Below are positions 3,986 through 59,605 of a stretch of 64,000 nucleotides of DNA, piece after piece. Location of the stretch: positions 32,001 through 96,000 of the IMG/VR virus record IMGVR_UViG_3300025030_000053; one strand, 5' to 3'. The first letter of the stretch is position 1; each line of letters opens with the position of its first letter. The notes under the pieces were generated by a model. The model was not told where the DNA came from and ran no database searches. It saw only the letters and a program-made list of their open reading frames with translations. The translations under genes and the position numbers were made by a program. This DNA comes from a virus.

Positions 3986-4708
3986 TCATCTCCTATCTTG
4001 AAATTTTTTTGCTCGATTCATCCACGAAAAAGACATCACATTTTTTTGTCTTTTCTTGATTGGAACCTTGATCACTTCGTCAAAGGAAGAATCGTCTCCT
4101 CCCGCAACCGGAGGGTTCTCTCTCAATCTCAATGATGCCTCATTCATTTGTTGCAAAACCGGGACGGGTGTGAATCTACCTCTGGGTTTTCCAGTCAAAG
4201 AATCAATTGAGTGTCGTTCTTCATTGTTCCGAATCAATTGTTGCATCAATTCGTCATCATTCTCAAACTCATCTGGTGTCATCCAGAGTGCTTTCACCGA
4301 CGCACCAGCTTTGCGTCCAATCTCAACCAATGGACGCCATCGTTTAGCAGAAAGAGTAGTTGCATCAAAAATAACATCTTTTCCAGATTTCAACAATTCA
4401 TTCAATCTTTGAAAGGCAAATTTGAAAATTGCTGAATCCAAATTTGAACTATTCCTCAAAATATCTTCTGGCACTATTTGCTTTGCTAATTCAAAGATCT
4501 CTGGATCGTTTTGCTCTAATTCTGATGGTTTTGAGCCAAATATCCTAGCATAATCAAATATGTGATTCGGTCCTGATATAGAATAATCCTGTGAAATTGC
4601 CTCACGATAATTATCAGGACTGACAACTATGTGATCTGGAAACATTTTCTTGATTGCCGTTGATTTTCCTGAGCCTGAAGACCCTATGGTAATGATTATT
4701 TCTGACAT
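3986..4708 (-). CDS. P-loop polynucleotide 5'-kinase-like protein (AAA_33/PNK kinase domain)
   Basis: IGSSGSGKST Walker A, VSPDNYR, VIFDATT, RNNER and VPVLQQM. Start moved to the ATG at 4708. Confidence 0.8.
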   Translation of the reverse strand: MSEIIITIGSSGSGKSTAIKKMFPDHIVVSPDNYREAISQDYSISGPNHIFDYARIFGSKPSELEQNDPEIFELAKQIVPEDILRNSSNLDSAIFKFAFQRLNELLKSGKDVIFDATTLSAKRWRPLVEIGRKAGASVKALWMTPDEFENDDELMQQLIRNNEERHSIDSLTGKPRGRFTPVPVLQQMNEASLRLRENPPVAGGDDSSFDEVIKVPIKKRQKNVMSFSWMNRAKKFQDRR

Positions 4709-5328
4709 AATTCTTCCTTCAACAATATTCCTCCCCATTGGATCGCCATAGCCTTTGCAATGCCAGGAAATGTTTTTGATCTTGCTCTAGATCTTTCTTT
4801 TGGAGGCAGCCCAGCAGTATCATATGTCCATTTTGGCATTGGAAATTTATTGCCGCCCTTGATCACTTCTCCTTGATCAACTATGTTGGTTGGAATCAAC
4901 GCCGGAAGCCCTTTCAACCATATACATGTTGTCTTCCTTGCTGAATCTCCAAACTGATATGGTTGAATGATCTGGTCTGGTTTTCTCCAAATTGTGCTCA
5001 TGATGCCGACTGGATTCTCAATAGCAACTTTTGGACACCTCAAATTAGTAAATTCCATAAAAAAATCAATACCTTGTTGTTGTCTTCCATCGGCACACTT
5101 CTTGGCAAAATGCCTAGCCCCACTCGTGGCAATGTGCGTGCAGGGTGGGAAAGCAAGAATCATGTCCCAGTCGTCATTTAGTAATGGCAATACATCTGTC
5201 TGCAAATGCCATTCTGGGTGCCCGCCTGAACAAGGTTCAATATCACAAGAAAATGATTCAATGCCGATGTGGCGCAATTCTTTGACAACTGCTTGACTTT
5301 CTTCGCAAGCAACTAATACTTTTTTCAT
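4696..5328 (-). CDS. Phage-type DNA cytosine-C5 methyltransferase-like protein
   Basis: VLVACEES, FPPCT (catalytic PC), IENP, K.TC.W and RSKTFPGIA. GAGGTG SD before the ATG at 5328. Confidence 0.8.
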   Translation of the reverse strand: MKKVLVACEESQAVVKELRHIGIESFSCDIEPCSGGHPEWHLQTDVLPLLNDDWDMILAFPPCTHIATSGARHFAKKCADGRQQQGIDFFMEFTNLRCPKVAIENPVGIMSTIWRKPDQIIQPYQFGDSARKTTCIWLKGLPALIPTNIVDQGEVIKGGNKFPMPKWTYDTAGLPPKERSRARSKTFPGIAKAMAIQWGGILLKEELCQK

Positions 5329-5335
5329 TTTCACC

Positions 5336-5983
5336 TCACATTCCAGGTTGTCCACCTTCATTCCTCCATCTGTTCCACTCGAAAGATGATAGATCTCCGT
5401 GCAATTGATCGCTCGGGTTTGGCACTCGTTCTGATTGGAAGATATAATAAAACCCAGGAACTGAGTGTCCGCGATTCACCTCAAAAATTCCTTTTTTGTT
5501 TCCTCCTGAATTTATTTCTTTACCAACTATTCTTGATTTTCCTTCTTGATCTACAAGAATCTTGAATTCCCAATTTTTCAATTGTTTGACTATGTCTTCT
5601 GCTTCAAATGGCAGATCTTCAACTCTGAATTCGCCATTTTGCTCATCAATCAACAGAAGAACTGCTTTTTCTTTGCTGTCTCCATCTTGGACAGCCATCA
5701 CGTTGATGTTATATGGATCTTTGTCGATAAAGAAATTACCTTGTTTTATTGTTTCCCATCCTTCGTCTGGAATTTCTGCCGCTTCTCCGATGATATGAAT
5801 AAATTCTGGGTGATATCGGACTTGTGATCGGATAAAGTCATCCATTCCGTTATCTCCAGAAAACGGCCACCATCTAGGGCCTCCGTATCTCGTAGACAAA
5901 GAAAAACCCTGAGTGGCAGGTCCACCGGGTGGACCCAAGCCTGCTGCCAAAACTATTTTTTTGCTCGCAAATTCCATCCACAT
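5336..5983 (-). CDS. Hypothetical late protein
   Basis: Starts MWMEFASKK. Lies 8 nt downstream of a sigma-H-type -10 box, with no SD. Confidence 0.6.
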   Translation of the reverse strand: MWMEFASKKIVLAAGLGPPGGPATQGFSLSTRYGGPRWWPFSGDNGMDDFIRSQVRYHPEFIHIIGEAAEIPDEGWETIKQGNFFIDKDPYNINVMAVQDGDSKEKAVLLLIDEQNGEFRVEDLPFEAEDIVKQLKNWEFKILVDQEGKSRIVGKEINSGGNKKGIFEVNRGHSVPGFYYIFQSERVPNPSDQLHGDLSSFEWNRWRNEGGQPGM

Positions 5984-5991
5984 ATATGTAT

Positions 5992-6018
5992 ATTCTCTAA
6001 AATAAATCTATTTCCTGC
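5992..6018 (-). promoter_or_regulatory. sigma-H-type promoter
   Basis: GCAGGAAAT-N11-AGAGAAT, an exact match to the B. subtilis sigma-H consensus RNAGGAWWW-N11/12-RNNGAAT. Confidence 0.7.
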
Positions 6019-6052
6019 AATAGATTTTGGTTTATGATTTGAGTAATATCTT

Positions 6053-7084
6053 ATGAAGGAGTTTGTAATGGAAGAATGGCTAAAAATTGATCCACCCTTT
6101 TCAAGATATTCTGTATCTTCTGGAGGAATGGTCAGGAACGATGAAACTGACTATATATTTTCGAAACAAAAAAATATTATTGATTATCCACAAATAAATA
6201 TAATACAAGATAATGGAAAAGGAAAACAAAAATTTGTTCATGTTCTTGTGGCACAACAATTTCTTGGATACACTCCTGAAATGCAAAAAAATAGACAAAT
6301 AGTCTGTCATCATAAAGATAATGATAAACAAAATTCAAGATTATCAAATCTTGAAATAATATCTGTAAGTGAAAATAATAAATATTGTAATAATCTTAGA
6401 AAAAATTCTAAAACTATACAACAATTTAATTTAAATGGAGATTTTATAAAAGAATACAAACCTAATGATAAAATCAATAATGAATGGAAAAGAATAAATA
6501 TTAATAATTGTTGTAATAATCAACAAAAAACTGCATATGGATTTATTTGGAAATACATATCAGAAGAAAATTTAGATGGTGAAATTTGGAAAGAAATAGA
6601 ATTTAATAATAAAATAATAAAAGTTTCCAATCTTGGAAGAATAAAAATTTCTTATGATGTAATTACATCAGGATATAAAAAACAAAGTGGATATAGATCC
6701 ATAGGGATCAATGGAAAAAGAATGCAAGTCCATCGACTTGTTTGTCAGACATTCCACCCGATTGACAATCCAGAAGATTTTGTTGTGAATCACATCAACC
6801 ACGTCAAAGATGACAATCGGGCAGAAAACTTGGAATGGACTACTCAAAGGGAAAATTGCAAAAAATATTTGGAAAAGAATCCGAATCAAACATATAGAAA
6901 TGTTAGGAAATGCCCTGTTGTTGGAATTAAAAATAATGAAATTATATATTTTAAAACATCTGAGGATGCTTGCATATGGAGCAGATCAAAACACATCTCA
7001 GATGTTTGCAAGGGAAAAAGAAAATCTGCCGGTGGCTTCAAATGGATGTATCTTGAAGATTATGAAAAACTCAAATCATCTTGA
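6053..7084 (+). CDS. Free-standing HNH homing endonuclease with tandem NUMOD4-HNH-NUMOD1-like units
   Basis: Two HNH motifs (VHVLVA..F...HHKDNDKQNSRLSNL and VHRLVC..F...[17 protein letters not shown]). [10 protein letters not shown] and KSAGGFKW NUMOD1-type ends. Inverted relative to its neighbours. Confidence 0.9.
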   Translation: MKEFVMEEWLKIDPPFSRYSVSSGGMVRNDETDYIFSKQKNIIDYPQINIIQDNGKGKQKFVHVLVAQQFLGYTPEMQKNRQIVCHHKDNDKQNSRLSNLEIISVSENNKYCNNLRKNSKTIQQFNLNGDFIKEYKPNDKINNEWKRININNCCNNQQKTAYGFIWKYISEENLDGEIWKEIEFNNKIIKVSNLGRIKISYDVITSGYKKQSGYRSIGINGKRMQVHRLVCQTFHPIDNPEDFVVNHINHVKDDNRAENLEWTTQRENCKKYLEKNPNQTYRNVRKCPVVGIKNNEIIYFKTSEDACIWSRSKHISDVCKGKRKSAGGFKWMYLEDYEKLKSS

Positions 7085-7241
7085 ATTCAAAAGTTTTTGA
7101 ATTTCCTCATAATAATAACTTTCAGCAGAATTAGGGATGCCAAAAGGAATTCTTTTGAGCCTGATGGCATTCAAAAATGATTGATGAACCCCTGGAAGAA
7201 TAATTCCATCTTTATAGATGAGTCTCTCATTATATAATTAT

Positions 7242-7724
7242 CTATTCCGGAATTTCAGATATATCTAATTTTCTGAACAACGATCCAGGAATATTTCCAG
7301 GTTCTTTTTCATATATCCATCCCGAACCATAACTATCAGACAAGAGATCTCTAAAATCAGGAGATTCCTGGAATTCGACTATTCCAGGATCCATATCTAA
7401 AAATTCTGTATTAGGATAATCTGTTGCCCACAGCAAGTTAGCGTTTGGATGCTCCTCAAACCATAACTCTGCTAATCTCTCAGTGGCAGCTTCAAATTCT
7501 TTCCCCTCAAAATCAGTTGAGCTATACAAAAATTTTTCATAGTTTTCTTCAAATTTTCTTTTTGACTCATCAGAAAGATCCTCATAAAATTCATAAAAAT
7601 GTTCTTGAAAATGGTCACCAAACCAACTTCCGTCAAATCCCTCTTGTATAATTTTGTATGCCCTATCCCTAGAAGTAGAATGATATGGGAAAGAGATGAC
7701 ATTTTTTGCCAATTTCATCCACAT
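7242..7724 (-). CDS. Hypothetical late protein
   Basis: Probable start at 7724 (TGATG coupling to the upstream stop); begins MWMKLAK. Confidence 0.6.
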   Translation of the reverse strand: MWMKLAKNVISFPYHSTSRDRAYKIIQEGFDGSWFGDHFQEHFYEFYEDLSDESKRKFEENYEKFLYSSTDFEGKEFEAATERLAELWFEEHPNANLLWATDYPNTEFLDMDPGIVEFQESPDFRDLLSDSYGSGWIYEKEPGNIPGSLFRKLDISEIPE

Positions 7725-9181
7725 CACATCCCGCCCTTTGATGGTCCAACTCTCAATTGATCTGGGTTTTCGGTCATGTGCCAATTTTCTGTTGTGTTTT
7801 CCGCACCTTCGTGCATATCAGTTGGATCTAATCCTCGCTCTTGTTCTCTGACTCTTCTCAAAGCCTCTTCAATGGTCATTGTTTGGAAATCAAACATTGG
7901 CAGCTTGTCTGTTGGAGACATTCCCTGAGAATTGTTTTCTTCGTTTGGCGTCTCCTTCCAGTTGAACAACCCAAGATGTTCTTTGTTGATAGGATATTGT
8001 TCCAGATAATCTTTGTTGCCACCAAATGGCTCATTTTCTGTGGTCTCTCTTCGGTCAACAATCTGATCCATATATCTGCTCTCTGCACCGAAAGCCCCCG
8101 TTCCGCCGCCGTGATAGTTAGGATCTAAATTGTTTGGATCATTCGGATCACCACGTCGAGAAGGGGCAGATCCAGATTCAAAATTATACACCGCTTGTTT
8201 GTCTAGGCTCGAATATCTCCTCAATGTGTCCCATCTGACTTTATTGGGACGTTTAGTCAACAAGTTTGGACCAACAGGAGGTAGTTTCCCGTGCCATTGC
8301 GGAGTATTTTCTAGAATAGCCTGGAAACGATAATCTCTTCCTTTATCTTCTCCTTCTCTTCTGGCATTCAAAGCAGTTTCTGGTGAAGTATAATGTGATG
8401 GGTCTATGACTGCTTGTGTTCTGAGCCATTCTGGTGATCTTTGCCGATCTCTTTCCTTTTCTTCTGCTCGTTGTTGAAACATCCTTCTCAGTCTTTGAAG
8501 ATTTTTTTGTTTGATTCTTTCTCCCCAGGCAAGATTGTATTTCATTGCATTTTCATCAGCATATTTATGATTATAAAAGCCAACATTTTCCAATTTCTTT
8601 TCTGTTGATGTTCCGCCAGCAACCTTGTCATTTTTCCTGGCCATATCCAACACAGAATCAAACATTGTTTGGGATTTCCAGCCATTTCCATAGAATTGAT
8701 CTATGTCTCCGCCTTTCTGGAATGAGAAGTTTGAAAAAGATCCACCTTCACTTCCAGACATCCCACCTTGTCCACCCCATTGAGCGAATTTCAAAGTCAA
8801 AATTCCAGGATGATTCCCGTTCAACATTGACGCAAGGCTGAACATAGAATTTACATCTGGCAATGGTTCTTTTTTAGAGGCGAGATATACCAACGCTTTT
8901 TGAACATTTTCTTCAACAGACTTTCCATTTTTAAATTTCAAAGAAAGTTTTTCTAATTCATTTTTAGAATATTTTTTAGAAATAGCAGATGGAATCACTA
9001 AATTCAATTTTTCTGATTTACTTGCTATTTTTATTTCTGGCTTCAAAATGTTGATCAAAGATGAGTTATCATCAGCAGAAATTATTGACACAGACGAAGA
9101 TATTTTGATCATAATCTTGTCATCATAATGATATATACCATCTTCTGCATTCAGCAATGTCAAAATTTGCTCTATTCTCAT
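7724..9181 (-). CDS. Hypothetical 485-aa protein, probably virion-associated
   Basis: IKIAS and LKFAQ motifs, Gly-rich disordered segments. Upstream GAAGGTTTT-N12-TATAAAT promoter-like motif at 9205-9232. Confidence 0.6.
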   Translation of the reverse strand: MRIEQILTLLNAEDGIYHYDDKIMIKISSSVSIISADDNSSLINILKPEIKIASKSEKLNLVIPSAISKKYSKNELEKLSLKFKNGKSVEENVQKALVYLASKKEPLPDVNSMFSLASMLNGNHPGILTLKFAQWGGQGGMSGSEGGSFSNFSFQKGGDIDQFYGNGWKSQTMFDSVLDMARKNDKVAGGTSTEKKLENVGFYNHKYADENAMKYNLAWGERIKQKNLQRLRRMFQQRAEEKERDRQRSPEWLRTQAVIDPSHYTSPETALNARREGEDKGRDYRFQAILENTPQWHGKLPPVGPNLLTKRPNKVRWDTLRRYSSLDKQAVYNFESGSAPSRRGDPNDPNNLDPNYHGGGTGAFGAESRYMDQIVDRRETTENEPFGGNKDYLEQYPINKEHLGLFNWKETPNEENNSQGMSPTDKLPMFDFQTMTIEEALRRVREQERGLDPTDMHEGAENTTENWHMTENPDQLRVGPSKGGM

Positions 9182-9232
9182 TTTATATTAGCCTCTTGGT
9201 TGATATTTATAATATTTATGATCAAAACCTTC

Positions 9233-9278
9233 ATTCAAACAAAAAAGGATGGGATATCCCATCCTTTTTTGTTTGAAT
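9233..9278. terminator. 46-bp perfect palindrome; bidirectional intrinsic terminator
   Basis: ATTCAAACAAAAAAGGATGGGAT|ATCCCATCCTTTTTTGTTTGAAT, just after the 9295 stop, with T-tracts on both strands. Confidence 0.85.
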
Positions 9279-9294
9279 TTGAATCAAGACTATT

Positions 9295-10908
9295 TTAGAT
9301 GTCCATACCGACAAATTCCAAAGAAACTCCTGCGAGTGAACTCTGATATACTTCATCTTCTGCTAGATAAATATTGACTTTATCTGATGGTTGAAGATCT
9401 GTATTCTCTGGAATATTAACCTCGACTGGCACAGAGAGCGCTCCAACGATATACAATTGATGGATATCAAAGAGATTCGTTACAGCACCATCCACGGTAA
9501 CCCTTACCCAATACAATTCTTCCGTAGAAGTAGTAGCAGGTGGAGTGGCTGTCAACAGCGTAGAATCTGCTGCATATTTTCTCCAATCACTTGGGATACC
9601 AGGGGCATCCCAGATAATTGTTCCATCTTGAGCGAATGAAGTCCCACCGGGACTATCAGTGCTGTCAGCAGCAGATGCCAGATTGACCCATTCAACGCCA
9701 TTCCAATAATCAGCAGAAGCAGCAACGGCATTGGCGTTGACGGTCGCACCGATGATGAAACCTATACCACCAAATGGCTGCGTATATCCTACATAAAGCT
9801 GATCAGTAGCTGCTGCCTGCATAGTCCAATTCACCAAAATTGGCGCAGCGACCGCTGAAACCTCTGTCAGAACACCACCGTCCTGCTGCACTACTGATGT
9901 GAATTTATCTGGCTGCTCGTTGCCACCACCAACAAATGTTGGCAAGCTGACTTCGGCTAAAACCTCATCACCTGGAACATATACTCTCTCAATCTCAACA
10001 TCAGCATCCAAATCATAAGAATTGACTGCTGATGTCAATGTAATTGCCACCCAGTAGACGTTATCTGTTAGTTTTGTTCCAGAATTGACGGTAGAGTGCG
10101 CAGAAGCCGTCGCATTGTATCTATCCCAATTTTCTGGTTTTTCAAACCAAGCAATTCTTCCGTTCCCTCCGAGGGAAACACCCGACCTCGAAGTTGTATC
10201 AGATACATTTTCGAATGATGTCCAACTGGACCCATTCCAATATTTGACAACATTGATTTTAGCTTGATCTACGTTAGTAGATGCAGTCATATCAATATAT
10301 ACATTATCGAATTTGAAAGTATGTCCGATGTAGATTGTATCTTGTGCATACACCATACTATCTACGGCAGTCCCGGTATCTGGAAGTCCCAAAGATGTCA
10401 ACGTTCCGTTGTCATCGATATAGGCATTGGTTGTCACTTGGGTTCCACTTCCAAAATCACCTTTGGTAACCAACAGGCTTCCTCTGTTATGGATGTAAAG
10501 GAATCCGGCGTTATTGTCTGGGGCAGCTCTTTGCCCAACTTTGGCAACAATTTTATCCAAGGACATTTTCTTTTTAGGTTGAAATTCGCCCATTACCAGA
10601 GAATCCACTGGGAAGTCCCAGGCAGCATTTGCGACATTTACATTGAATGTAGAAACTGGCATATAATTTCTTTTTGTAGTTCCTGCTATCCCTTCTAAAT
10701 AGCCTACAAAGTTTGAAGAAAGTGCAACACCATTCTCGTCAACCTCACCTAATGGTTCTACAAAACCCTGTTCAAGATAAGTCTGTGAAACAAGTCTGTT
10801 TGCTTCATTTGCTGGAACAACGAATTCATTGCCATAGGCATATGTATTGCCTCCGACACCTAGTCTTCCTGGACCTCTAAATGTGCATCTATATTTGAAG
10901 TAATTCAT
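9295..10908 (-). CDS. Putative virion structural protein (paralogue A)
   Basis: Beta-rich, rich in V/T/G/D. Two internal copies of a YWNG..W...D.T...G...W..P..W...YWV module. AAGGAG SD. Adjacent to the terminase region. Confidence 0.65.
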   Translation of the reverse strand: MNYFKYRCTFRGPGRLGVGGNTYAYGNEFVVPANEANRLVSQTYLEQGFVEPLGEVDENGVALSSNFVGYLEGIAGTTKRNYMPVSTFNVNVANAAWDFPVDSLVMGEFQPKKKMSLDKIVAKVGQRAAPDNNAGFLYIHNRGSLLVTKGDFGSGTQVTTNAYIDDNGTLTSLGLPDTGTAVDSMVYAQDTIYIGHTFKFDNVYIDMTASTNVDQAKINVVKYWNGSSWTSFENVSDTTSRSGVSLGGNGRIAWFEKPENWDRYNATASAHSTVNSGTKLTDNVYWVAITLTSAVNSYDLDADVEIERVYVPGDEVLAEVSLPTFVGGGNEQPDKFTSVVQQDGGVLTEVSAVAAPILVNWTMQAAATDQLYVGYTQPFGGIGFIIGATVNANAVAASADYWNGVEWVNLASAADSTDSPGGTSFAQDGTIIWDAPGIPSDWRKYAADSTLLTATPPATTSTEELYWVRVTVDGAVTNLFDIHQLYIVGALSVPVEVNIPENTDLQPSDKVNIYLAEDEVYQSSLAGVSLEFVGMDI

Positions 10909-10939
10909 ATTTTTCTCCTTCTAAATTTCACTTCTTCAT

Positions 10940-10974
10940 CCTGATGGGGGAATTCAAAGAATTCCCCCATCAGG
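10940..10974. repeat. 16-bp-stem hairpin between the paralogous structural genes
   Basis: CCTGATGGGGGAATTC-AAA-GAATTCCCCCATCAGG, with no U-tract on the coding strand. Confidence 0.8.
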
Positions 10975-10980
10975 CAGAAA

Positions 10981-12597
10981 TTAGATGTCCGCTCCGACGA
11001 GTTGAAGTGTAACGCCACTTAGCGCGTCAGTTTCACCTTCTATTTCTCCAACATAAACATTCAAGAAATCGCTCGGTGCAACCTCAACGTTAGTTGGGAC
11101 ATTGAATTCGATAGGGACTGTAGCAGATCTTATTGGATACACTCTGTTGATATCGAACAAGTTAGTTAAGTTTCCGTCCCACGTCAGTCTGACCCAGAAC
11201 AAAACACTAGTTGTTGTATCTGTGTCAAGTGTTTGACTATCCATCAATGCGGATGTAGCCGCTGTGGATCTCCAATCAGCAGGTATATTCCAAGTGACGG
11301 CACCATCAACTTTCAAGGTATCTGCAACAGAATTTGTTCCGTCGGTAGCGCCCAATGATACCCACTCTGCCCCATTCCAATAGCTCGCGGTAAGAGTAGA
11401 TACAGCATCATTGACCGTGGTCCCAACATCAACAAGAACTCCGCCAAAGATATCTGCATAACCGAGATAGAGTGCATCATCAGCGGCATTAGGTGTCGGC
11501 CAATCTGTAATCATTGCCGATGTAGACGCATAAACATCATTTAATGTAGTATCATCTTGCTGAACTACAGAATCGAATGTTTCCCTGCTCGCAATTACCT
11601 TTTCACCATCTTTGACGGCAATCATATTGATTTCAGCTAGTGGCTCATCGCCAGGCACCCAAATTCTATTGAGTTCTGTATCAGCATCAAAAGTGGTTGC
11701 TGAACCGTCGGTCAAATACTGAACGGCGACCCAATAAACATCATTTGCTAATGCTGTTCCGGAATTAACTCCTGAAACACGATGTGCAGAAGCAGTAGCA
11801 CCATCTGGATCCCAGTTTACTGGTTGTTCATACCAGGCAATCCAACCATCTCCACCGAGAGGGGCGCCGGCACGAACTGTAGTATCTGTGACATTCTCAA
11901 ATGCTGTCCAACCAGTGCCATTCCAATAGCTTACTGAATAAATGTATCCACCATTACCATTGACTGAGCCGGCGACCACATCAACATAAACACCAGAGAA
12001 TTTAGCTGTATGCCCAATATAAATTGTATCTTGAAGATATGTAAAGCTGTCAAGAACTGTAGTAGTCAAAGGAAGTCCTAGTGTTTCCAGTGTCCCGTTA
12101 TCATCAGTCCAGCCATTTGTCGTGATTTGAGTAGCTTCTCCAGAATCACCCTTGGTCAAGAGCATATGAACTCGGTTGTCTAGATTCAATGTGCCAGAAC
12201 CATCGTCAGTAGCAGGAAGTACCGCTTGATAAGATACAACTTTGTCAAGCATCAGCCTTCTTTGAACATTATAATCAGACACAACTTTTACACCAGCAGT
12301 GTCAAAAGCAGTATCTGGCAATGGTATGTCAATTGTGACAGCCGGCAGAACATTTTTGCTCAACGTCCATTGTTTACCATCAAGCAAACTTTGAATATTC
12401 GGTGAAAAATATCCGCCAGCAGTATCTACCTCGCCGAGATATTCAAGATGTTTTCCTGTTAAATCTGCTGTTTTAACTTTTCTAGCGGCTTGTTCGTCAC
12501 TGAGAACGATTACCTGTCCATATGTTGCTGGAATATCACCAACAGCAAAGAAACCAGGCCCTCTATATGTGCATCTATATGCATGAAAATTAGCCAT
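10981..12597 (-). CDS. Putative virion structural protein (paralogue B)
   Basis: Colinear with 9295..10908 along its full length (YRCT.RGPG, LLTKGD.G..TQ.TTN...DDNGTL..LGLP, QDTIYIGHT, SVVQQD, G.DI end). Confidence 0.65.
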   Translation of the reverse strand: MANFHAYRCTYRGPGFFAVGDIPATYGQVIVLSDEQAARKVKTADLTGKHLEYLGEVDTAGGYFSPNIQSLLDGKQWTLSKNVLPAVTIDIPLPDTAFDTAGVKVVSDYNVQRRLMLDKVVSYQAVLPATDDGSGTLNLDNRVHMLLTKGDSGEATQITTNGWTDDNGTLETLGLPLTTTVLDSFTYLQDTIYIGHTAKFSGVYVDVVAGSVNGNGGYIYSVSYWNGTGWTAFENVTDTTVRAGAPLGGDGWIAWYEQPVNWDPDGATASAHRVSGVNSGTALANDVYWVAVQYLTDGSATTFDADTELNRIWVPGDEPLAEINMIAVKDGEKVIASRETFDSVVQQDDTTLNDVYASTSAMITDWPTPNAADDALYLGYADIFGGVLVDVGTTVNDAVSTLTASYWNGAEWVSLGATDGTNSVADTLKVDGAVTWNIPADWRSTAATSALMDSQTLDTDTTTSVLFWVRLTWDGNLTNLFDINRVYPIRSATVPIEFNVPTNVEVAPSDFLNVYVGEIEGETDALSGVTLQLVGADI

Positions 12598-12661
12598 ATA
12601 ATTTTCCTCCTAAATCCTCACAGCGAGGATGAAATTTATCCTTATTGGATTATATTTGTTT

Positions 12662-12688
12662 ATTCTTTAAAAATTTAGATATTCCTTC
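12662..12688 (-). promoter_or_regulatory. sigma-H-type promoter
   Basis: GAAGGAATA-N11-AAAGAAT, an exact sigma-H consensus match upstream of the structural gene pair. Confidence 0.7.
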
Positions 12689-12732
12689 TTTTTCAAAAAT
12701 TTTTTTGGTTATTTTTTGTGGTTAGTTTTGTT

Positions 12733-20518: not shown

Positions 20519-21382
20519 TTATTGTCTTTTTTTAGAACGATATATAATCGTAGATATAGATGTCGGATCAATTTCACTAAAAATTTTACTTGCTTTTTTT
20601 CTAATTCTTCCAAGACTATTATCAACACATTTTACGGATATTTCAAGTTTTTCTGCAATTTCTCTGTATGGGTCGCCACGGTCATACCCATCGAGCACCG
20701 CGCATTCCAATTGCGTCAATTCTGAGTCTAAAAAGTGTCTAATTTTATATTTTTCTTCATTTTCTATAATCATTTGCAATGGATCCATATCAGAAGATTC
20801 TATTAGATCGCCAATAGTTTGAGAAGAATTTTCTTCCTGGCTGGATACTACTTGAACGTCAAGAGATGTAGCAGTATTTAATGGAATAGATTTTTGTCTT
20901 TTTATAGACCTATCAAGTTGAGTTAATATTCCTCTTTTGACACATAATCTTATTGCGAAATTTTCAAACGAAATATTTTTGTCATATAAATAGTCTCTTG
21001 CCGCATTATATAATATTATTCTTGATTCCTGAAATAAATCTTCTTGATCTTTACCTTGAACATAATATTTTTTGCAGATAGATTTGATGTATTGCTCCAT
21101 ATATTTTATTAATTGATCAAATGAATCTTCATCATATCCTGATATAATTTTTTCTGATTTATATTTTCCAACTATTTTTGATACTACAAATTTATCTTTG
21201 TTGTTTGATTCTTCAAATCTGTGTTTGATATCGGAATCAATAATATATACTATTTTCCGTCCTGATTTATATTCTACGCATAAAACATCATTGACTATTG
21301 AATATTTAGATATTCGAGATCCTTGTTTAATGTTTTCAACAAGTTTCAAAATTTTATCACTGGAATATTTGCGAAATGCCAT
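20519..21382 (-). CDS. sigH: sigma-H (Spo0H)-like RNA polymerase sigma factor
   Basis: EDLFQE..I.LY.A.RDY...SFENFA..LCVKR.I.T......RQK.IPLN...SLD and YREIAEKL..S.K.VDNSL.RIRKK. The RQK.IPLN and K..DN.L.R..K signatures are characteristic of SigH. Confidence 0.85.
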   Translation of the reverse strand: MAFRKYSSDKILKLVENIKQGSRISKYSIVNDVLCVEYKSGRKIVYIIDSDIKHRFEESNNKDKFVVSKIVGKYKSEKIISGYDEDSFDQLIKYMEQYIKSICKKYYVQGKDQEDLFQESRIILYNAARDYLYDKNISFENFAIRLCVKRGILTQLDRSIKRQKSIPLNTATSLDVQVVSSQEENSSQTIGDLIESSDMDPLQMIIENEEKYKIRHFLDSELTQLECAVLDGYDRGDPYREIAEKLEISVKCVDNSLGRIRKKASKIFSEIDPTSISTIIYRSKKRQ

Positions 21383-23437: not shown

Positions 23438-24565
23438 TCAAATTCCTTTTCTTCCTGTTAATTTCTCTTGTTCCAATGATTTCTCAATTTTTATTTTCGC
23501 CTCATCAATCATTGGCTGGTTTCCCCAAATCCATCTAAAATTTTTGTAAATTTTACCAGAATTACAAGCTGATGTAATTCTGCCACATGCATTCGATGGT
23601 TTTAGTCCTATTTCTTGACCCGCATCTGTCATAGATTTATATTCTTTTTTATTTCCATTTTGATCTATTCTTAGAACAGATTTTTTGTATTGATTTCTTA
23701 ATTTATTAATACCAGGATTCATTGCAAAAAATGCTTTGCAATTTTCCTTTTGAGTCATCCATTCCAAGTTCTCTGCTCGATTGTCATATTTGATGTGATT
23801 GATGTGATTCACGACGAAATCTTCTGGATTGTCAATTGGGTGGAAGGCTTGACAAACGAGACGATGACATTTTATTCTTAAATGTTTTTGAGAAAACATC
23901 ATATATCCATTTTTACATTTAGACCCAAATGTTCTAGATAATTTTTTATTTTCATATCTTCCCATATTAGATATTTTCCATATGTATTCTCTATAAAATA
24001 TTTCTTTCCAAATTTCCCCATCTAAATCTTCATCAATTTTATATTTCCAAATAAATCCATATGCAGTTTTTTCTCGCCCACTAGCGGCGGCAGAAATTAA
24101 GGATACTGCACGTTTTGAATGTGGACGAACTGCCATCGTAGCCTCTTTAATAGAGGAATATTCTTTGATAAATATATAATGAAGATCATATTGCATGACA
24201 CTTCTGATATATTTATCTTTTTTATTTTTAATACTTAATTGTGAATTTTCTCTTTTAGTAGTTATTTTTAAATTATAAAATTCACAATTACTTCTGTTAG
24301 AATCTATATGATGAATAACTAAATTATCATCTTTTATTTGTTCATCAGTATAATTTAAAAAATATTTTGCTACTAAAATATGTGTCTGTTTAAAATAATA
24401 TTTTTTATCAGATCCGTATAGAGAATTTACTATATATCCTAATGAATTTTTGCTTTTGATATGAATATAATTATTGTTATTACTTCTTATATATCCATTA
24501 TTAGAAATAGAATATTTCTCAAATGGATATTCCATATTTTTCCATTCTATTTTTTGCCCTTCCAT
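23438..24565 (-). CDS. Free-standing HNH homing endonuclease with tandem units (paralogue of 6053..7084)
   Basis: Two HNH motifs plus NUMOD-like segments; GGAGG SD before the ATG at 24565. Confidence 0.88.
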
Positions 24566-24737
24566 TAGAATCCTCCAAAAATCGTTCAATTTCGGAGATT
24601 CTATATCTGCGATGCCCACCAGCAGTTCTTAATGCTATAAATTTACCAGAATTATCCCATTTTAATAATGTATCAGGATGTACCCCTAGTAATTTTGCTG
24701 CTTTGCTTACTGATATCAGTATTGAATCATTTTCCAT
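24519..24737 (-). CDS. MerR-type/excisionase-like HTH protein (resembles the IS607 TnpA N-terminus and BldC)
   Basis: [33 protein letters not shown]; no resolvase domain follows. Confidence 0.8.
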
Positions 24738-49533: not shown

Positions 49534-49541
49534 AATTTTTC

Positions 49542-50631: not shown

Positions 50632-50642
50632 CTTGGCTCAGA

Positions 50643-53823: not shown

Positions 53824-54605
53824 ATTTTATATTTATTCAAGATATATTCCATATAGTCAGAATTATTTTTAGATAGTTTGTTTTTGATATTTTTTTCTCT
53901 TGCTTCATAATTGAAATGCTTCATCATCGCACTTCGATCTTGAATATCTCCGGTAAAAGGAGACTCTTCAACAACGCGATTTTCAACTGGATTAATATTG
54001 CTTTGCTCGATCCTTCGTTCGGACATTTCTCGCGCCAAAATAGAATTTTTTACTTCAATGGAAACACCATCTTTTTGCATATCAATAATATCTTTTGAAA
54101 TATTTTCTATATCTTTAAATATGGAGCATCTTTCTTCGTGAATGGAAACTATTTTTGGGTTTATTTTATATACAAACATTTGATTATCTATATATTTTTC
54201 TAATTTTAACTCTTGAATATAATTTTCAAAATTATTCCATCCATCATCTAAAAGTTCTCTCAACAAGTGAGAATATGACATAATAAAATCATATATATTT
54301 ATTGAATCATCTATGTATTTTTCAAACACGCCGCTCAGCGGTGCATCTAATGCTTTCTTTGTGTGTGTCAGAACTATTTCATCATCTTTGACTTTTGTGG
54401 CACTATAATATTCCAAAAATCCCTCTGATACTGCCATTCCTGCACGAAGTATTCCAGAAATTTGCAATGAATCATGATTTTTTGATTGTTCTAAAAATTC
54501 TTTTATAGATTTAATATAAATGATGTTTTCATTATCTGGCAAAAATTTCAGACTATTAAGATAGTCTTCGTGTTTTCCATAGATGTATAATTTTATTAAA
54601 GGCAT
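53820..54605 (-). CDS. Hypothetical protein
   Basis: GGAG SD; coupled to the sbcC N-half. Confidence 0.6.
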   Translation of the reverse strand: MPLIKLYIYGKHEDYLNSLKFLPDNENIIYIKSIKEFLEQSKNHDSLQISGILRAGMAVSEGFLEYYSATKVKDDEIVLTHTKKALDAPLSGVFEKYIDDSINIYDFIMSYSHLLRELLDDGWNNFENYIQELKLEKYIDNQMFVYKINPKIVSIHEERCSIFKDIENISKDIIDMQKDGVSIEVKNSILAREMSERRIEQSNINPVENRVVEESPFTGDIQDRSAMMKHFNYEAREKNIKNKLSKNNSDYMEYILNKYKI

Positions 54606-54645
54606 TTTTTATTCTCCAAAGAAATAATAGTTTGGGAGTGATATT

Positions 54646-54852
54646 ATGTCAAAAGTATTGAAAAAAATTGTAGATTATGAAATTGCTATGGATTTGATCA
54701 ATGATTTGAGAGCAAAAATAAAAATAAATCCAACTATGGAAGATTATGACGATTTGTTGCAATGTTGGAATAGACTATATGAATATATGTCGACTGCCCC
54801 AGTAGAACAAACAGGAGCGTCACTCCCCAGGATACTCACCGCTCGGCGATGA
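54646..54852 (+). CDS. Small hypothetical protein
   Basis: GGGAG SD; promoter-like AAAGGCATT-N11-AAAGAAA at 54598-54624. Confidence 0.55.
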   Translation: MSKVLKKIVDYEIAMDLINDLRAKIKINPTMEDYDDLLQCWNRLYEYMSTAPVEQTGASLPRILTARR

Positions 54853-55191
54853 ATTCAAGCACAACCTAGACGATAATCTGATATTTTTCAATATATTTTC
54901 TATAATTTCAAATGATTTTTTTATAGATTTCAAAAGATTGATATCAAGAAATATATATATTTCTTCTTCAATTTCTCTGATATATAAATTATTTAATCCC
55001 TTGAATGAATCTTCTATTGCAATAGAAGATATATATTTTATTTTAGAATATGGAATATTTTGAAAATGGTTAGATAGAATTTCTTTTAGTGCTATATCTA
55101 TTTGATATTTGAGAACATTTATGTTCTCATTTGTAGATATTGAAAACAAAATTTTATCGCTGCCGTAATCCCACTCAAATTTATTTAACAT
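54820..55191 (-). CDS. Hypothetical protein
   Basis: Coupled to the upstream ORF by TAATG. Confidence 0.5.
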   Translation of the reverse strand: MLNKFEWDYGSDKILFSISTNENINVLKYQIDIALKEILSNHFQNIPYSKIKYISSIAIEDSFKGLNNLYIREIEEEIYIFLDINLLKSIKKSFEIIENILKNIRLSSRLCLNSSPSGEYPGE

Positions 55192-55964
55192 TATTTTCTC
55201 ACAAATATTTCAGAATTATTAGTTGTTTGTTTTGATTTTTTCCAATCTTTTTCACAATCATAACAATAGAATGAATCTATTCCTAAATTTAGGATATTGT
55301 TTCCACACTCACCACAATATGGGCATGATACTCCTTTGAGATTAGAAAGTTCTTCTTCTTCATTGATCTCAAAATATTCTATCATAAATTCCTTGTCATC
55401 GAAATCAGCATCTATAAATATTGAATTTTCTTCTTTTAATATTTCTTCATAATTTTCACTAATTTCTTTTAGTTGATTAGATACAAATTCAATTCTGTCA
55501 TCTTCTGAAATTCCTACAACAGAATTGCTTGATGATGTTTTCTTTGTTCTCAATATTTCTAATGATCTTTCTACAAAAATATAAATATATTCATTCAAGA
55601 TTGGCAAATCTGATTTTTTGAAATCATCTAAATTAGGAATAAATATATCTGTATCCTTGGTGATGTTCAAAGATATTATATGATCTAATTTTTTTAGAAT
55701 ATTTTCAATATTAAATTTTTCTTCATCTATAATTTTTGATACATATATCAGTAGACAAGCAAATGAAACTTTGAATAAATTTTCTTTTGATATAGATTTT
55801 ATATTGATGCTGACATTGTTCAATTTTATATTTAATTCAGATTGTTTTTCTGAATCTAATAATTCCAGATATTTAGGATATTTCATTTCACAATATGAAA
55901 GAAATTTATCTTCTGATGTCATATCAACTAATATTCCATTATTATTTTCCATATATGTCTCCAT
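55191..55964 (-). CDS. Hypothetical protein with C-terminal Zn ribbon
   Basis: CPYCG...CYDC. Confidence 0.6.
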   Translation of the reverse strand: METYMENNNGILVDMTSEDKFLSYCEMKYPKYLELLDSEKQSELNIKLNNVSINIKSISKENLFKVSFACLLIYVSKIIDEEKFNIENILKKLDHIISLNITKDTDIFIPNLDDFKKSDLPILNEYIYIFVERSLEILRTKKTSSSNSVVGISEDDRIEFVSNQLKEISENYEEILKEENSIFIDADFDDKEFMIEYFEINEEEELSNLKGVSCPYCGECGNNILNLGIDSFYCYDCEKDWKKSKQTTNNSEIFVRK

Positions 55965-56027
55965 TAAAAAGGTTTCAAGGATATTATATTAGAATTAAAC
56001 TTCAAATATCAAATTTTGGAGAGTAAA

Positions 56028-56480
56028 ATGGAAAATGAATTATTGGGATTTCAAAAAGAATATTGGCGAGCATTGACATTCAACAACAAGCAAGAAGCAG
56101 ATGATATAGAAAAAAGATGGGAGAAGCATTCAAAAAAGCAATTAGACTTGTTGAAAAAAGAAGCACAATTAAAAATTATTGAAGATATTTATGATAATAT
56201 AAATTATTTAGATAGTTTAGCGTATGCTAATGATAATAATTCTAATTGGAATGATTATCTGGAATTTTTAAAAGAATCTAAAAATAACAGAGAAATTATA
56301 ACCAAATTTGCATCTAATTCTGATTATATCTATGGCAAAAAGTTTGTTGTATCTAATAAACTTTTTGAAGAAAAAATGATGACATTAGAAAATCCAGTAA
56401 TTGAATTCAAAATTTTAAGAAATAGTTTAAAAGATTTTCAATCAGAACTAGAATCGGAAATTTCTTCACCGACTTCATAG
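56028..56480 (+). CDS. Hypothetical late protein
   Basis: GGAG SD before the ATG at 56028. KKEAQ and TKFAS motifs. Promoter-like AAAGGTTTC-N12-TTAGAAT at 55968-55995. Confidence 0.6.
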   Translation: MENELLGFQKEYWRALTFNNKQEADDIEKRWEKHSKKQLDLLKKEAQLKIIEDIYDNINYLDSLAYANDNNSNWNDYLEFLKESKNNREIITKFASNSDYIYGKKFVVSNKLFEEKMMTLENPVIEFKILRNSLKDFQSELESEISSPTS

Positions 56481-56719
56481 TCTAAAAATGAAAGTGCCCC
56501 TCCTCTGTATATAAAATCTTTTAGTCCAGATATATCTTTATTTAGTTCTGGAACATTCAATGTATTTCTAAAAATTATTTCAATGTAATCTTTCATTTCT
56601 GACATAAGAGAAATTTGAGTACAGATCAAAATTCTATCAATATTTTCTTCCTCTATTGATTTAGCAAATATATTTATAAATTGTGATTTTTTCAGTCTTG
56701 GTAGTCTATCATTCATCAT
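56438..56719 (-). CDS. Hypothetical protein
   Basis: 93-aa ORF overlapping the upstream gene. Confidence 0.45.
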   Translation of the reverse strand: MMNDRLPRLKKSQFINIFAKSIEEENIDRILICTQISLMSEMKDYIEIIFRNTLNVPELNKDISGLKDFIYRGGALSFLDYEVGEEISDSSSD

Positions 56720-57227
56720 TGTTGGCCTTTCTAATAATTATATTTTGATCATCAACCCTGTCGCCATTTGAAATTTCATTAGGCATCACACCACTAATTA
56801 TCACTTTGTCGTTCTCATTGATATTTCTAGGGACTATATTCGTAGATATATAAAATATTTTATTTTTTTGTTTAATCAAAGTGTATTTGTCATCTATTTT
56901 TTTGACATGTGCTATTGACTTATTATTGGATTCTTTTTCAAAGAACTCTTTTTTATTGATGTAGTTGCAAGACAAGCATCTAATTAAATTTATATCTAAT
57001 TTGTTGAATTTAATATTTCTTGATATATACTTGTTTAATTTCTTGTTGAAAATAATTTCTGATATAAAATCTTTGGAATCAATCCAGAATGCAAAAAAAT
57101 TGTTATTTATATTTGTCCCACAATTTGGACAAACTATTTCTATTTTTTCTATCGCCTCTCCTACTGGAGAATAATTAGATGCCATCGGAAAAAGGACTTC
57201 TGAATTTTTTGAAGAATTTATTTTCAT
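56709..57227 (-). CDS. Zn-ribbon hypothetical protein
   Basis: CPNC...CLSC. The real start may be the second Met. Confidence 0.5.
   Translation of the reverse strand: MKINSSKNSEVLFPMASNYSPVGEAIEKIEIVCPNCGTNINNNFFAFWIDSKDFISEIIFNKKLNKYISRNIKFNKLDINLIRCLSCNYINKKEFFEKESNNKSIAHVKKIDDKYTLIKQKNKIFYISTNIVPRNINENDKVIISGVMPNEISNGDRVDDQNIIIRKANNDE
57191..57217 (+). promoter_or_regulatory. sigma-H-type promoter for the HD-domain gene
   Basis: AAAGGACTT-N11-GAAGAAT, one mismatch to the consensus. Confidence 0.6.
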
Positions 57228-57250
57228 AGTTTAGGAGAGTACTCTTATCA

Positions 57251-58288
57251 ATGACAACTTTCAACTGGCTAAAAATGGCATCTGAGGAAATAAAAAACCA
57301 AGCAAACGGAATTTCAGACTTTGAAGGACACCAATGGCGCGATATCGGTGCTGATGAACTTCAAAATTTGAAGCATAAATTTGACTGGATGAATGAATAT
57401 TACTCTGATGAAGAAGAAATTCCACACGATACTCCATACCACCAAGAGAGTTTAATTGAACACATACGACAAGTATCACAACAAATCAAAAATTTTCGAG
57501 CCTACCCAAACAATCCGCTCCTGGCTGATTTACTAGCAATTGCTGGAATTTTTCACGATCATTGGAAAATCAGAACCAGGGCGCCAAAAACAAGATTCAT
57601 TTGTCCAGATTGCAACTATCCAAACACCAAATCAGAAGAACCTTGCAAAAATTGCGGCAGCGAATCTTCCAAACAAGAAAAAGAAGTAATGGGATATCAC
57701 GGACACGAGGAATTAGGATCTAGAAGTGAAAATCTTTTTCCAAGACTAGAATCTATTGGTGTTCCTAGACAATATTGGGAGATTGTCCAATTTTTAGTCA
57801 GAAATCATCTAGCAATTCACGATCTAATTGAAACTCTCGCCCACAATGATCAATTATCTGAAAAACAAATTTCAAGATGGTCAAAAATGTTCAGCAACAA
57901 AGTTGGAATACCATTGGAAGATATGATCAGAATGTCTATCATTTTGTCAATGGCTGACAATTTGGGTAGAATCACTCAATTGCCATCAAAATACACAATG
58001 AAAGATTTATCAAGGGGTAAAGTCCAAGAAACTCAATTACTGGCTATTGCTGATTTGATGACCGCAGTTGTAGTCAAAGCAATTCAAGGAAATAATGTTT
58101 CTAAAAAATCAAAACCTGATATTTCTAAAACATTCACACCAGAACAAATTCAAAGAATAGACAGGATTCTTGATCAAGTTGGAATCAGTCTATTTGATAC
58201 CGAAGCAACTGATAGAAACAAATTATTCAATCTGCTTTCAAGACTTGGAATGAAAAGATTGATTCAAGAAATTTTAAAAGTACTATAA
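57251..58288 (+). CDS. HD-domain phosphohydrolase (type found in Pnkp/RNA-repair proteins) with a Zn-ribbon insert
   Basis: PYHQE....H, IFHD..K, CPDC..CKNC insert, YHGHE..G, V.NH, ADN.GR. Confidence 0.8.
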   Translation: MTTFNWLKMASEEIKNQANGISDFEGHQWRDIGADELQNLKHKFDWMNEYYSDEEEIPHDTPYHQESLIEHIRQVSQQIKNFRAYPNNPLLADLLAIAGIFHDHWKIRTRAPKTRFICPDCNYPNTKSEEPCKNCGSESSKQEKEVMGYHGHEELGSRSENLFPRLESIGVPRQYWEIVQFLVRNHLAIHDLIETLAHNDQLSEKQISRWSKMFSNKVGIPLEDMIRMSIILSMADNLGRITQLPSKYTMKDLSRGKVQETQLLAIADLMTAVVVKAIQGNNVSKKSKPDISKTFTPEQIQRIDRILDQVGISLFDTEATDRNKLFNLLSRLGMKRLIQEILKVL

Positions 58289-59605
58289 AGTTTTACCATC
58301 ATTTTTTGGTATCAATATATTTTCTGATATTTTTTCTATTGTTCTTTCAAGATTGGAATATTCTGATCCAAGAATTTGAACATCAAACATTGTCATCGCC
58401 AAAGATTTCTCTAATGACGGCATCTTCATCACTTCATCAGAAGTAGCAAATTCTTTTTTGAAATTTCTAACTAATTGATTGTTTAATTCTCCAATTTGTC
58501 TTATTCTATTTGAATATTCTTGTTTCCATTGATTGATAATTTTTTGAATTATCTGAATCATTTCTGATATTTTTTCTTTTCTTTGAATGTAAATGTCAAA
58601 CCATTTTTTAGATTGTTCAATAATTTCATAATCATATTCATTTTCTTGCATTGCGTCTTTGAAATCTTGTTTTGAAATTAAAAATTGTTCTGATTCTTTT
58701 GATTTCTTTTCGCAAATCTCAACTAGAACCTTGTATGTAAATTTAGAATGCATCCTGTGCATTGCCAGATATTTTGGCCCCTTGATTTTTGTCATCAAAG
58801 GCTCATCTGGATGTCGGACCACTACACCCTCATCTTCCCATTCTCCAGATTCTTCCATTTCTGTGATTATTTTTTTGATTTGTTTCGGACCAGCAGCCGA
58901 ATTCAACTTTTCAACAATTGAAACCAAATTCAGACCAGAGTTTCTGGCAATTTCTTGCAACTGGCTCCACGGCAACATTTGTTCAGATTCTTTTTCTCTG
59001 GCGTGGATGAAGACTAAATCTGATTCTGGATATTTGATCACAGAATCATTATCTGGACCTACATATTCAAAATACATTTCCATATCTGGACTGAAATTTG
59101 GGTCCAGAACCTTTGGATAGGCTGTTTCAAATTTTTCAACAACTGAATATCTCCACGCACCAAGAAGAGTAATCAATTGGTCAGAAGATCCTTGATCAAC
59201 AGATATCGCCCCACGAGTGCGAAGAATCACAACACCTTTGAAAACAGACCTAATGATCAAAACTCCATCTTCTTTTTTGGTGATTATTCCTCTTTTCTGT
59301 TTGATTGCATCTGAAATTTTCTGATCCCAGGATTGTAGTTTTCCAGACTCATCCAATTGCTCTCCGTAATTCATAAATTTATTCAGACCACGAGAAACAG
59401 GAATGAAATTTGGTAATTCATAGATTACCGATCTTTCTGTCATCTCATCTGGTAAATAAAAATATTTATCCTTCTCTGGCACCAAATGCACCCAATTTGG
59501 ATGTCCAGCCACAGAACGCAATTTGAACCCTCTGGAACGAACCTCTTCGGGGTTCTTGATCCAATCTGGTACCGATGCTAATTTTATTGTTTTGAACTTA
59601 GACAT
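58283..59605 (-). CDS. T4 Rnl1-like ATP-dependent RNA ligase
   Basis: SRGLNKFMN, KEDG (motif I), TRG, FEYVGP.N..VI.Y, EGVVV, KIKG..Y...H. Confidence 0.87.
   Translation of the reverse strand: MSKFKTIKLASVPDWIKNPEEVRSRGFKLRSVAGHPNWVHLVPEKDKYFYLPDEMTERSVIYELPNFIPVSRGLNKFMNYGEQLDESGKLQSWDQKISDAIKQKRGIITKKEDGVLIIRSVFKGVVILRTRGAISVDQGSSDQLITLLGAWRYSVVEKFETAYPKVLDPNFSPDMEMYFEYVGPDNDSVIKYPESDLVFIHAREKESEQMLPWSQLQEIARNSGLNLVSIVEKLNSAAGPKQIKKIITEMEESGEWEDEGVVVRHPDEPLMTKIKGPKYLAMHRMHSKFTYKVLVEICEKKSKESEQFLISKQDFKDAMQENEYDYEIIEQSKKWFDIYIQRKEKISEMIQIIQKIINQWKQEYSNRIRQIGELNNQLVRNFKKEFATSDEVMKMPSLEKSLAMTMFDVQILGSEYSNLERTIEKISENILIPKNDGKTL

Follow-up and report, generated by a model that had tools for sequence, protein, structure and literature searches.

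A candidate RNA end-healing and sealing set with a shared terminal peptide tag in an uncultured huge phage

We analysed a 64,000-nucleotide stretch of virus DNA (the window), which covers bases 32001-96000 of one 105,766-bp contig, the linear IMG/VR virus record IMGVR_UViG_3300025030_000053. It encodes a 5'-kinase related to PNK, an HD phosphoesterase and an Rnl1-like RNA ligase as three separate genes, and all three proteins carry at one terminus a form of a short peptide tag with the core W-[L/M/Y/F]-K-x-A. The tag is conserved on orthologues, behaves as a module, and is linked to a SigH-type promoter class and to the neighbourhood of the capsid gene. We propose, with a probability of about 0.42, that the enzymes form a split RNA end-healing and sealing set which is addressed to the prohead by the tag and injected together with the DNA. 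RNA as the substrate, head loading, cleavage of the tag and injection are what we infer from the sequence.

The contig is a fragment only, with a CheckV completeness estimate of 30% and a GC content of about 33%. A search of IMG/VR with its capsid protein gave 120 relatives at 57-86% identity, and because these sit on contigs of up to 548 kb we assign the source to a large clade of uncultured huge phages. One related phage of 183 kb (G001) has a capsid protein that is 86% identical. The clade was opened via the capsid protein only, and 80 capsid-gene loci were used for a survey of the tag; pattern scans of IMG/VR with the HD protein, the ligase and the kinase gave no relatives. Among 50,697 phage records we found no match for the HD-ligase region at the DNA level, for the HD protein or for the kinase, and the ligase matched only Rnl1 genes at 26% identity.

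Three separate enzyme genes

A first-pass annotation of the window had named a PNK-type kinase, an HD phosphohydrolase and an Rnl1-type ligase as separate genes, and all three are indeed present (Table 1). The start of the kinase gene is placed at 4708 and not at 4738, because the orthologues begin at the same methionine. The protein contains the P-loop GxxGxGKS/T together with the acceptor-binding motif D-x-x-R, and an alignment of four orthologues shows no change in the P-loop (G9-S16), D32, R35 or R123. Among solved structures, that of the Clostridium thermocellum Pnkp kinase domain (CthPnkp; 4gp6, 9e-6) is the closest, and the segment that aligns with CthPnkp residues 11-49 holds both the P-loop and the D-x-x-R motif. 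With the curated family TIGR04075 (bacter_Pnkp) only 39 residues are matched at 26.8 bits, below the cut-off of 750. The gene lies in an operon with the order 215-aa gene (p215), methyltransferase, kinase, Dam, and is flanked by two DNA methyltransferases, one of the Dam type and one of phrog_757. The kinase orthologues (50-56% identity) end with SWLKFAK or SWLEFAK, except one that stops at KKR and is tailless; the tag is thus C-terminal in 3/4 orthologues.

The HD protein gave no match to Pfam or PHROG. We found 19 homologues among 1.8 billion representatives, and none of them has the fused kinase-HD form. The metal ligands H71, H102-D103, H152, H186 and D236 are invariant in 14 homologues, and an inserted zinc ribbon contains four cysteines, of which three are invariant and the fourth nearly so in the same set. 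The AlphaFold2 model (predicted local distance difference test, pLDDT, 86) matches 3wfo_A, the C-terminal half of the Aquifex A-adding enzyme, with a VIA-align Z of 15.5 and a root-mean-square deviation of 3.9 over 186 residues, followed by PhnZ, PPX/GppA, YhaM, SAMHD1 and Cas3-HD. In addition, the family profile aligns with the HD domain of the CCA-adding enzyme encoded at clade locus L060 (hhalign 96%, E 2e-9). The protein is therefore modelled with an HD fold of the CCA-enzyme type, and it may have derived from the HD domain of CCA-adding enzymes. Its orthologues (35-42% identity) start with MWLKFAQ or MWLKKVA, and the tag of the window protein, FNWLKMAS, can be read as a bridge between MNWYKKAQ and MWLKFA.

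The ligase passes the gathering cut-off of PF09511 (50.2 bits, cut-off 28.3), and its profile reaches T4 Rnl1 with 5e-9. Nucleotidyl-transferase motifs I, III, IV and V are kept, with K111-E-D-G, E180, E259-G and K273/K275 invariant in five homologues and lined up with T4 Rnl1. The cut-off of the NCBIfam equivalog TIGR02308 is not reached (61.4 bits, cut-off 242), and judged by this score the protein is a distant relative of that family, not an equivalog. The structural model is of low confidence (pLDDT 64) with a helical C-terminus, and the top Foldseek match is T4 Rnl1 at 1.6e-7, with a template modelling score of only about 0.3. At the N-terminus an 11-residue extension carries a degenerate tag that ends with KLAS. 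The orthologues P0030 and P0036 start with MWFRKAMA or MWFRKSMA, and the ligases P0003, P0004 and that of G001 have no extension. Compared with orthologues that open with the conserved FPWF block, the window ligase is 11 residues longer. The HD gene (+) and the ligase gene (-) converge with an overlap of 6 nt, and this convergent pair recurs in G001 within a nine-gene syntenic block at 33% identity.

Some further genes were seen around the ligase. In the window, a 39-codon open reading frame (ORF) for a small hydrophobic protein (59662-59781, -) lies between a sigma-70-like promoter and the ligase gene. In the 183-kb relative, a Ro60-like TROVE protein (L004:14676-16670, -; PF05731, 3e-25) stands beside the RNA ligase as a further RNA quality-control gene of this neighbourhood, and a 608-aa protein is also inserted there.

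Table 1. Positions of the enzymes, tags, promoters and related genes. Plain coordinates refer to the window; PWM, position weight matrix.
Feature	Position	Strand	Details
Stand-alone PNK-like P-loop 5'-kinase, 240 aa, with C-terminal tail	3986..4708	-	Pfam AAA_33 3.6e-15
C-terminal tag core W-M-N-R-A of the kinase	4010..4024	-	within a 20-residue tail past the conserved KKR
Tagged 215-aa protein, starts MWMEFAS	5336..5983	-	heads the kinase operon; 47%-identical G001 orthologue starts MWLKLAI
SigH-type promoter of the p215/methyltransferase/kinase/Dam operon	5992..6016	-	PWM 24.2, intergenic
Tagged 160-aa protein, starts MWMKLAK	7242..7724	-	ATG overlaps stop of upstream 485-aa gene
Phage SigH-like sigma factor	20519..21382	-	TIGR02859 spore_sigH 4.9e-37; Sigma70_r2 29.6 bits
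SigH-type promoter of the HD gene	57193..57217	+	PWM 22.8; 34 nt before ATG
HD phosphoesterase, CCA-enzyme type, zinc-ribbon insert, 345 aa	57251..58288	+	motifs, fold, hhalign
N-terminal tag FNWLKMAS of the HD protein	57260..57283	+	
Rnl1-like RNA ligase, 440 aa	58283..59605	-	PF09511 3.9e-13, phrog_562 5e-28
11-residue N-terminal extension of the ligase, degenerate tag ending KLAS	59573..59605	-	pLDDT 30 in the model
Sigma-70-like promoter TTGACA-17-TATATT	59884..59912	-	11/12 consensus matches; 277 nt upstream of the ligase
Terminase, DnaE-type polymerase, DnaB helicase	contig		
Capsid protein	contig		phrog_2522, 3e-66
1407-aa giant protein, head-maturation protease domain	genome 19618-23841 (L002)		phrog_18299, 4e-17
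Portal fusion, 1085 aa	genome 23920-27177 (L002)		
Full-length CCA-adding enzyme with MNWYK tag	L060:10959-12527	+	starts ~0.1 kb after capsid gene
Full-length CCA-adding enzyme with MNWYK tag	L066:12694-14259	+	starts ~1.8 kb downstream of capsid gene
Tagged 2H phosphoesterase, ~174 aa	L026:16613-17134	+	similar ORFs in L018, L029

A modular tag and a late promoter class

The tails quoted in the first-pass annotation, FSWMNRAKK on the kinase, MTTFNWLKMAS on the HD protein and MSKFKTIKLAS on the ligase, are all found as given, with the tag N-terminal on the HD protein and the ligase and C-terminal on the kinase. They had been likened to the termini of late proteins, and this likeness held when we searched the contig in six frames: the regular expression MW[LMF][KER][FLMK]A gave five matches, 5/5 at gene starts, compared with 0.0 in shuffled sequences. 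All statistics on the tag were devised after the motif had been seen and are thus post hoc. The five bearers are an SNF2 helicase of 854 aa, two paralogous HExxH proteins, the 215-aa protein and the 160-aa protein. Apart from this one paralogous pair, and from two proteins of G001 that share an N-terminal module, the bearers are mutually unrelated. The residue that follows the tag alanine is S, T, K, L, Q or V. A full-text literature search for the motif gave no paper.

Between copies of the tag both the codons and the upstream DNA differ, which shows that selection acts on the peptide. A cause at the nucleotide level, such as a promoter-leader cassette or a translation signal, was rejected for the same reason, and also because some tagged genes lie inside operons and the kinase bears its tag at the C-terminus. 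A sliding-clamp or single-stranded-DNA-binding-protein motif was set aside as well: the DNA polymerase and the sigma factor were both examined and neither carries the tag, and the tagged set includes HExxH proteins and proteins without an assigned function beside the portal gene.

The alignments bear out the idea of lineage-specific tails, as the tag stands on close orthologues. It is kept on orthologues in four families, HD, kinase, ligase and SNF2 helicase, and absent from more distant members; the helicase, for example, has it on the closest orthologues and misses it on distant ones. The tagged orthologues (P0006, P0007, P0009, P0026, P0028, P0030) were compared as single proteins. In G001 the HD protein and the ligase are both untagged, and the motif MW[LF]K[LF]A begins seven other genes, six of them at 58-98 kb around the head genes. 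The orthologue of the 215-aa protein and another HExxH protein are among the seven, and two of the seven have the N-terminal module in common. Because orthologous enzymes occur with and without it, we conclude that the tag has been added to or lost from orthologues as a module.

The survey of the 80 capsid-gene loci extended this picture. In several sublineages each locus has three to seven unrelated ORFs that begin with a variant, MNWYK[KRTQ][AS]. Among long open frames 25 of the 38 motif matches are N-terminal, and 24 of these 25 N-terminally tagged genes sit 0.1-6.5 kb downstream of the capsid gene. One good C-terminal case was seen in the clade, a 1045-aa protein in locus L010. The tagged proteins comprise an AAA_33 kinase (L022), CCA-adding enzymes (L060, L066), a 2H phosphoesterase (L026) and helix-turn-helix proteins; enzymes with predicted activity on RNA ends are thus recurrent bearers of the tag in the clade. 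Both CCA-adding enzymes have a PolyA_pol head, an RNA-binding domain and an HD domain. The 2H phosphoesterase matches LigT-like models and also the model of Acb1, which acts against the cyclic-oligonucleotide-based antiphage signalling system (CBASS), and it could degrade cyclic-nucleotide signals instead of healing RNA ends. The motif M-x-R-[YF]-D-I-x-L-x-K-K, sought in the same 80 loci, was absent. The N-termini of the capsid proteins, M-[AS]-hydrophobic-x-K, have only a loose likeness to the tag. Separately, three genes upstream of the portal gene (genome 27215-30832, L002) start with MFNL.K or MAKFK and have G001 orthologues with similar starts; they may form a second leader class that is distinct from the W-L-K tag.

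The second link concerns promoters. The pattern AGGA-N17/18-GAAT with a T-rich spacer occurs at about eight intergenic sites, which precede the giant protein with the protease domain, the operons that lead to the terminase and to the 538- and 537-aa proteins, and the genes of the helicase, the 215-aa protein, a 281-aa HExxH protein and the HD protein. The likely reader, from its sequence, is the SigH-like sigma factor of the phage, which fits TIGR02859 far better than other sigma families, yet stays below the equivalog cut-off; its gene lies among replication genes, beside a gene with a clamp-loader-like N-terminus. Tag and SigH-type promoter co-occur with a Fisher p of 7e-6, or 2e-4 in a conservative count, both post hoc. 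The operon promoter stands 9 nt upstream of the start codon of the tagged p215 gene, and an AGGAG ribosome-binding site lies between the HD promoter and the HD gene. Three tagged genes (starts at window 5983, genome 9115 and genome 101083) lack a ribosome-binding site and have their ATG only 9-12 nt past the end of the -10 element; their mRNAs are likely leaderless and would begin with ATG-TGG.

A SigH-type promoter had been claimed earlier for all three enzyme genes. With regard to spacing, orientation and a cognate sigma factor, this applies to the kinase operon and to the HD gene and fails for the ligase. The weak site proposed in front of the ligase was rejected, since it scores only -2 in the matrix built from the site family; the best SigH-like site upstream of this gene is equalled or beaten by 326 positions of the genome. 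The ligase lies instead behind a sigma-70-like promoter that contains the motif CTATAT[AT][AT]TAT. This motif has five copies (window 18339, 27741, 33590, 33592 and 59882), all intergenic and in front of non-structural genes, and it is probably the mark of a second class of promoters, which the host sigma factor would read. With this promoter and a degenerate tag on the ligase, its late expression in this phage, which the first-pass annotation had assumed, finds no support.

Head loading, RNA repair and competing explanations

What could the tag do? In the reading that we favour, W-[L/Y/M/F]-K-x-A would be a modular address at one terminus of each enzyme, which most likely docks late-made proteins into the assembling prohead, perhaps through contact with shell or scaffold or with the giant protein that has the protease domain, and which may be cut after the alanine. 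The cargo would then enter the next host together with the DNA, where cut tRNA or mRNA ends could be healed by the kinase and the HD protein and sealed by the ligase before any phage protein is made. We consider head loading the best reading because tagged genes cluster beside the capsid gene and share a late promoter type with head genes, because the phage has a head-maturation protease, and because T4 provides a direct precedent. The clustering, the protease domain and the gain and loss of the tag raise the odds of head loading; they prove nothing.

The tag might instead dock another late partner, such as a hub protein, a membrane-associated assembly site or a protease that acts solely as a processing enzyme, with the enzymes at work in the producing cell, for instance against RNases that are turned on by host defences sensing late structural proteins. 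We regard this as a serious competitor, if an unlikely one. A short peptide rich in W, L, K, F and A that is tolerated at either terminus would fit an amphipathic localisation helix or a generic linear motif, the cargo of the relatives includes helix-turn-helix DNA-binding proteins, and the late promoters alone account for co-expression with structural genes. Such a partner would not lead one to expect that 24/25 tagged genes in the relatives lie directly downstream of the capsid gene, nor that the DNA polymerase and the sigma factor are untagged; moreover, the conservation of specific W, K and A residues goes beyond mere amphipathicity.

The view that the kinase, the HD protein and the ligase are an RNA end-healing and sealing set, as the first-pass annotation had it, gains support from the families, the motifs and the HD-ligase synteny; the RNA-repair part of our proposal thus has its basis in homology and in the conservation of the HD-ligase pair. 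The kinase is its weakest member, because its neighbours are methyltransferases and phage P-loop kinases are known to act on DNA bases. Hence only the HD protein and the ligase might pair up, with a kinase that acts on DNA or nucleotides, for instance by modifying bases or ends in the manner of hypermodifying phages, and merely shares the tag; we judge this to be improbable. The operon position between the Dam-type and the phrog_757 DNA methyltransferases would suit such a role, as would a thymidylate-synthase-like gene at 61167-62642; the kinase reaches only the general AAA_33 model, its TIGR04075 match spans 39 residues, and phage P-loop kinases that phosphorylate 5-hydroxymethyldeoxyuridine in DNA do exist (PMC8989533). 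Against this, the best solved relative is the CthPnkp kinase domain with the D-x-x-R motif aligned, and a tblastn search of the 50,697 phage records with the kinase stayed empty at E 0.01. Furthermore, a different tagged AAA_33 kinase stands in the L022 cluster beside the capsid gene, and other clade members hold tagged RNA-end enzymes at the same capsid-side position.

It is very unlikely that no three-enzyme pathway exists, with the Rnl1-like protein morphogenetic, as in the tail-fibre attachment by T4 gp63, and the HD protein alone in maintaining tRNA CCA ends. Such roles would agree with the label of phrog_562, 'RNA ligase and tail fiber protein attachment catalyst', and with the homology of the HD family to the HD domain of CCA-adding enzymes, but all nucleotidyl-transferase motifs of the ligase are intact and the convergent, overlapping HD-ligase pair is kept in a relative at 33% identity. 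Chance likeness through AT-rich codon usage at gene ends has next to no credit: Lys, Asn, Phe and Ile are common at 33% GC and the ligase tag is weak when taken alone, but with 5 matches observed against 0.0 expected, conservation on orthologues at 35-56% identity and recurrence in G001 and the clade, it is refuted for the tag overall and is possible only for the KLAS of the ligase in the window phage.

Several observations weigh against the injected repair set. The kinase gene lies between DNA methyltransferases, 52 kb away from the HD-ligase pair, and its partnership with that pair is drawn only from the shared tag and the enzymology. The ligase tag is degenerate in the window phage, and the ligase has no SigH-type promoter and stands behind the sigma-70-like class found before non-structural genes. 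Neither hmmscan nor a search of the contig gave a match of the HD protein to the Pfam HD model (PF01966). A cleavage site of the T4 type, L/I-x-E, is missing from the end of the tag, the statistics that connect tag and promoter are post hoc, and a contig of about 30% of the genome leaves out part of the gene context.

The closest functional parallel is T4, in which Pnkp and Rnl1 repair tRNA cut by the anticodon nuclease PrrC and whose chemistry, 5'-kinase, 3'-end phosphoesterase and Rnl1-family ligase, is the one expected here. In the window phage the kinase and the phosphoesterase are separate genes, and the ligase shares no more than about 17-19% identity with T4 Rnl1. The phosphatase of T4 Pnkp is of the DxDxT type, whereas the window phosphoesterase is an HD domain; the T4 repair enzymes are not known to bear an address tag or to be packaged in the virion. 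The combination of kinase, HD domain and ligase for healing and sealing is also found in phage RM378 Pnkp, with a 5'-kinase and an HD 2',3'-phosphoesterase for end-healing (PMC1997131), and in Runella slithyformis HD-Pnk, a kinase-HD enzyme with an adjacent ATP-dependent ligase (PMC6097658). Unlike in these enzymes, the kinase and the HD protein of the window are unfused and 52 kb apart, and the HD protein has a zinc-ribbon insert and misses the Pfam HD model.

For the address, the capsid targeting sequence of T4 (IPI-III, Alt) is the nearest model, since it loads diverse defence-countering proteins into the head (PMC3012670). Common to both are a short terminal peptide on unrelated proteins, a variable cargo and a head-maturation protease. 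The window tag differs in its W-L/Y-K-x-A core, in the missing L/I-x-E site, in its occurrence at C-termini too, and in a cargo that includes large enzymes, namely the 854-aa SNF2 helicase and the RNA-repair enzymes; the T4 lineage is unrelated to that of the window phage. Phage P1 packs defence-countering enzymes of its Dar antirestriction system, such as DarB, a helicase-methyltransferase, into its capsid, and its loading depends on a chain of Dar proteins. The large SNF2-type helicase among the tagged proteins resembles this cargo, while the tags have no sequence relation. Encapsulin cargo-loading peptides are likewise short and terminal, at either end, stand on unrelated enzymes and dock inside an HK97-fold shell; encapsulins are not viruses and deliver no cargo.

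In its widest form, the idea would be that an address usable at either terminus packs and injects a whole tRNA/RNA repair toolkit throughout the huge-phage clade, a suggestion that we make tentatively and consider doubtful. The toolkit would comprise a 5'-kinase, an HD or 2H phosphoesterase, an Rnl1-like ligase and a CCA-adding enzyme, and it could repair damage by host anticodon nucleases or other RNases before the phage makes protein. Once tRNA cleavage has shut down translation, a phage is unable to make its repair enzymes, and delivery with the DNA would solve this chicken-and-egg problem; RNA repair would then be added to the functions that phages bring along ready-made, next to anti-restriction proteins and RNA polymerases. 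Should the tag indeed serve as an address for head loading, sequence data would be enough to recognise packaged cargo throughout this large clade of uncultured huge phages, and a tag of 5-7 residues that is functional at either end of a protein would lend itself as a compact means of bringing foreign proteins into capsids. The tagged and untagged orthologues offer a clean natural experiment.

Other genes of the contig

No tRNA genes or Rfam families were found in the window, and searches of the contig for RtcB, TROVE, PolyA_pol and an ATP-dependent DNA ligase gave none; as the contig represents about 30% of the genome, this absence of other repair genes says little. The portal (1085 aa) and the protein with the protease domain (1407 aa) are far above the usual length and have extra domains, and in this they resemble the 'polyvalent proteins' that are thought to be delivered with phage DNA. 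A 330-aa protein (genome 9158-10150, L001) matches the capsid family phrog_2522 with its C-terminal part (1.6e-6); this second, divergent capsid-like gene lies just upstream of the tagged helicase gene.

The 537- and 538-aa proteins (window 9295-10908 and 10981-12597, -) have similar N-termini and are likely paralogues. Their genes, located between the terminase and the 485-aa genes, have no family match and a raised GC content of 0.40-0.43, and the upstream copy of the pair has its own SigH-type promoter. Finally, homing endonucleases of the LAGLIDADG and HNH/AP2-like types (genome 12817-15010, L001; window 6053-7084 and 23438-24619) break up the late and replication modules. Two of these genes lie directly downstream of the capsid gene, at the site that holds the cassette of tagged genes in the relatives.

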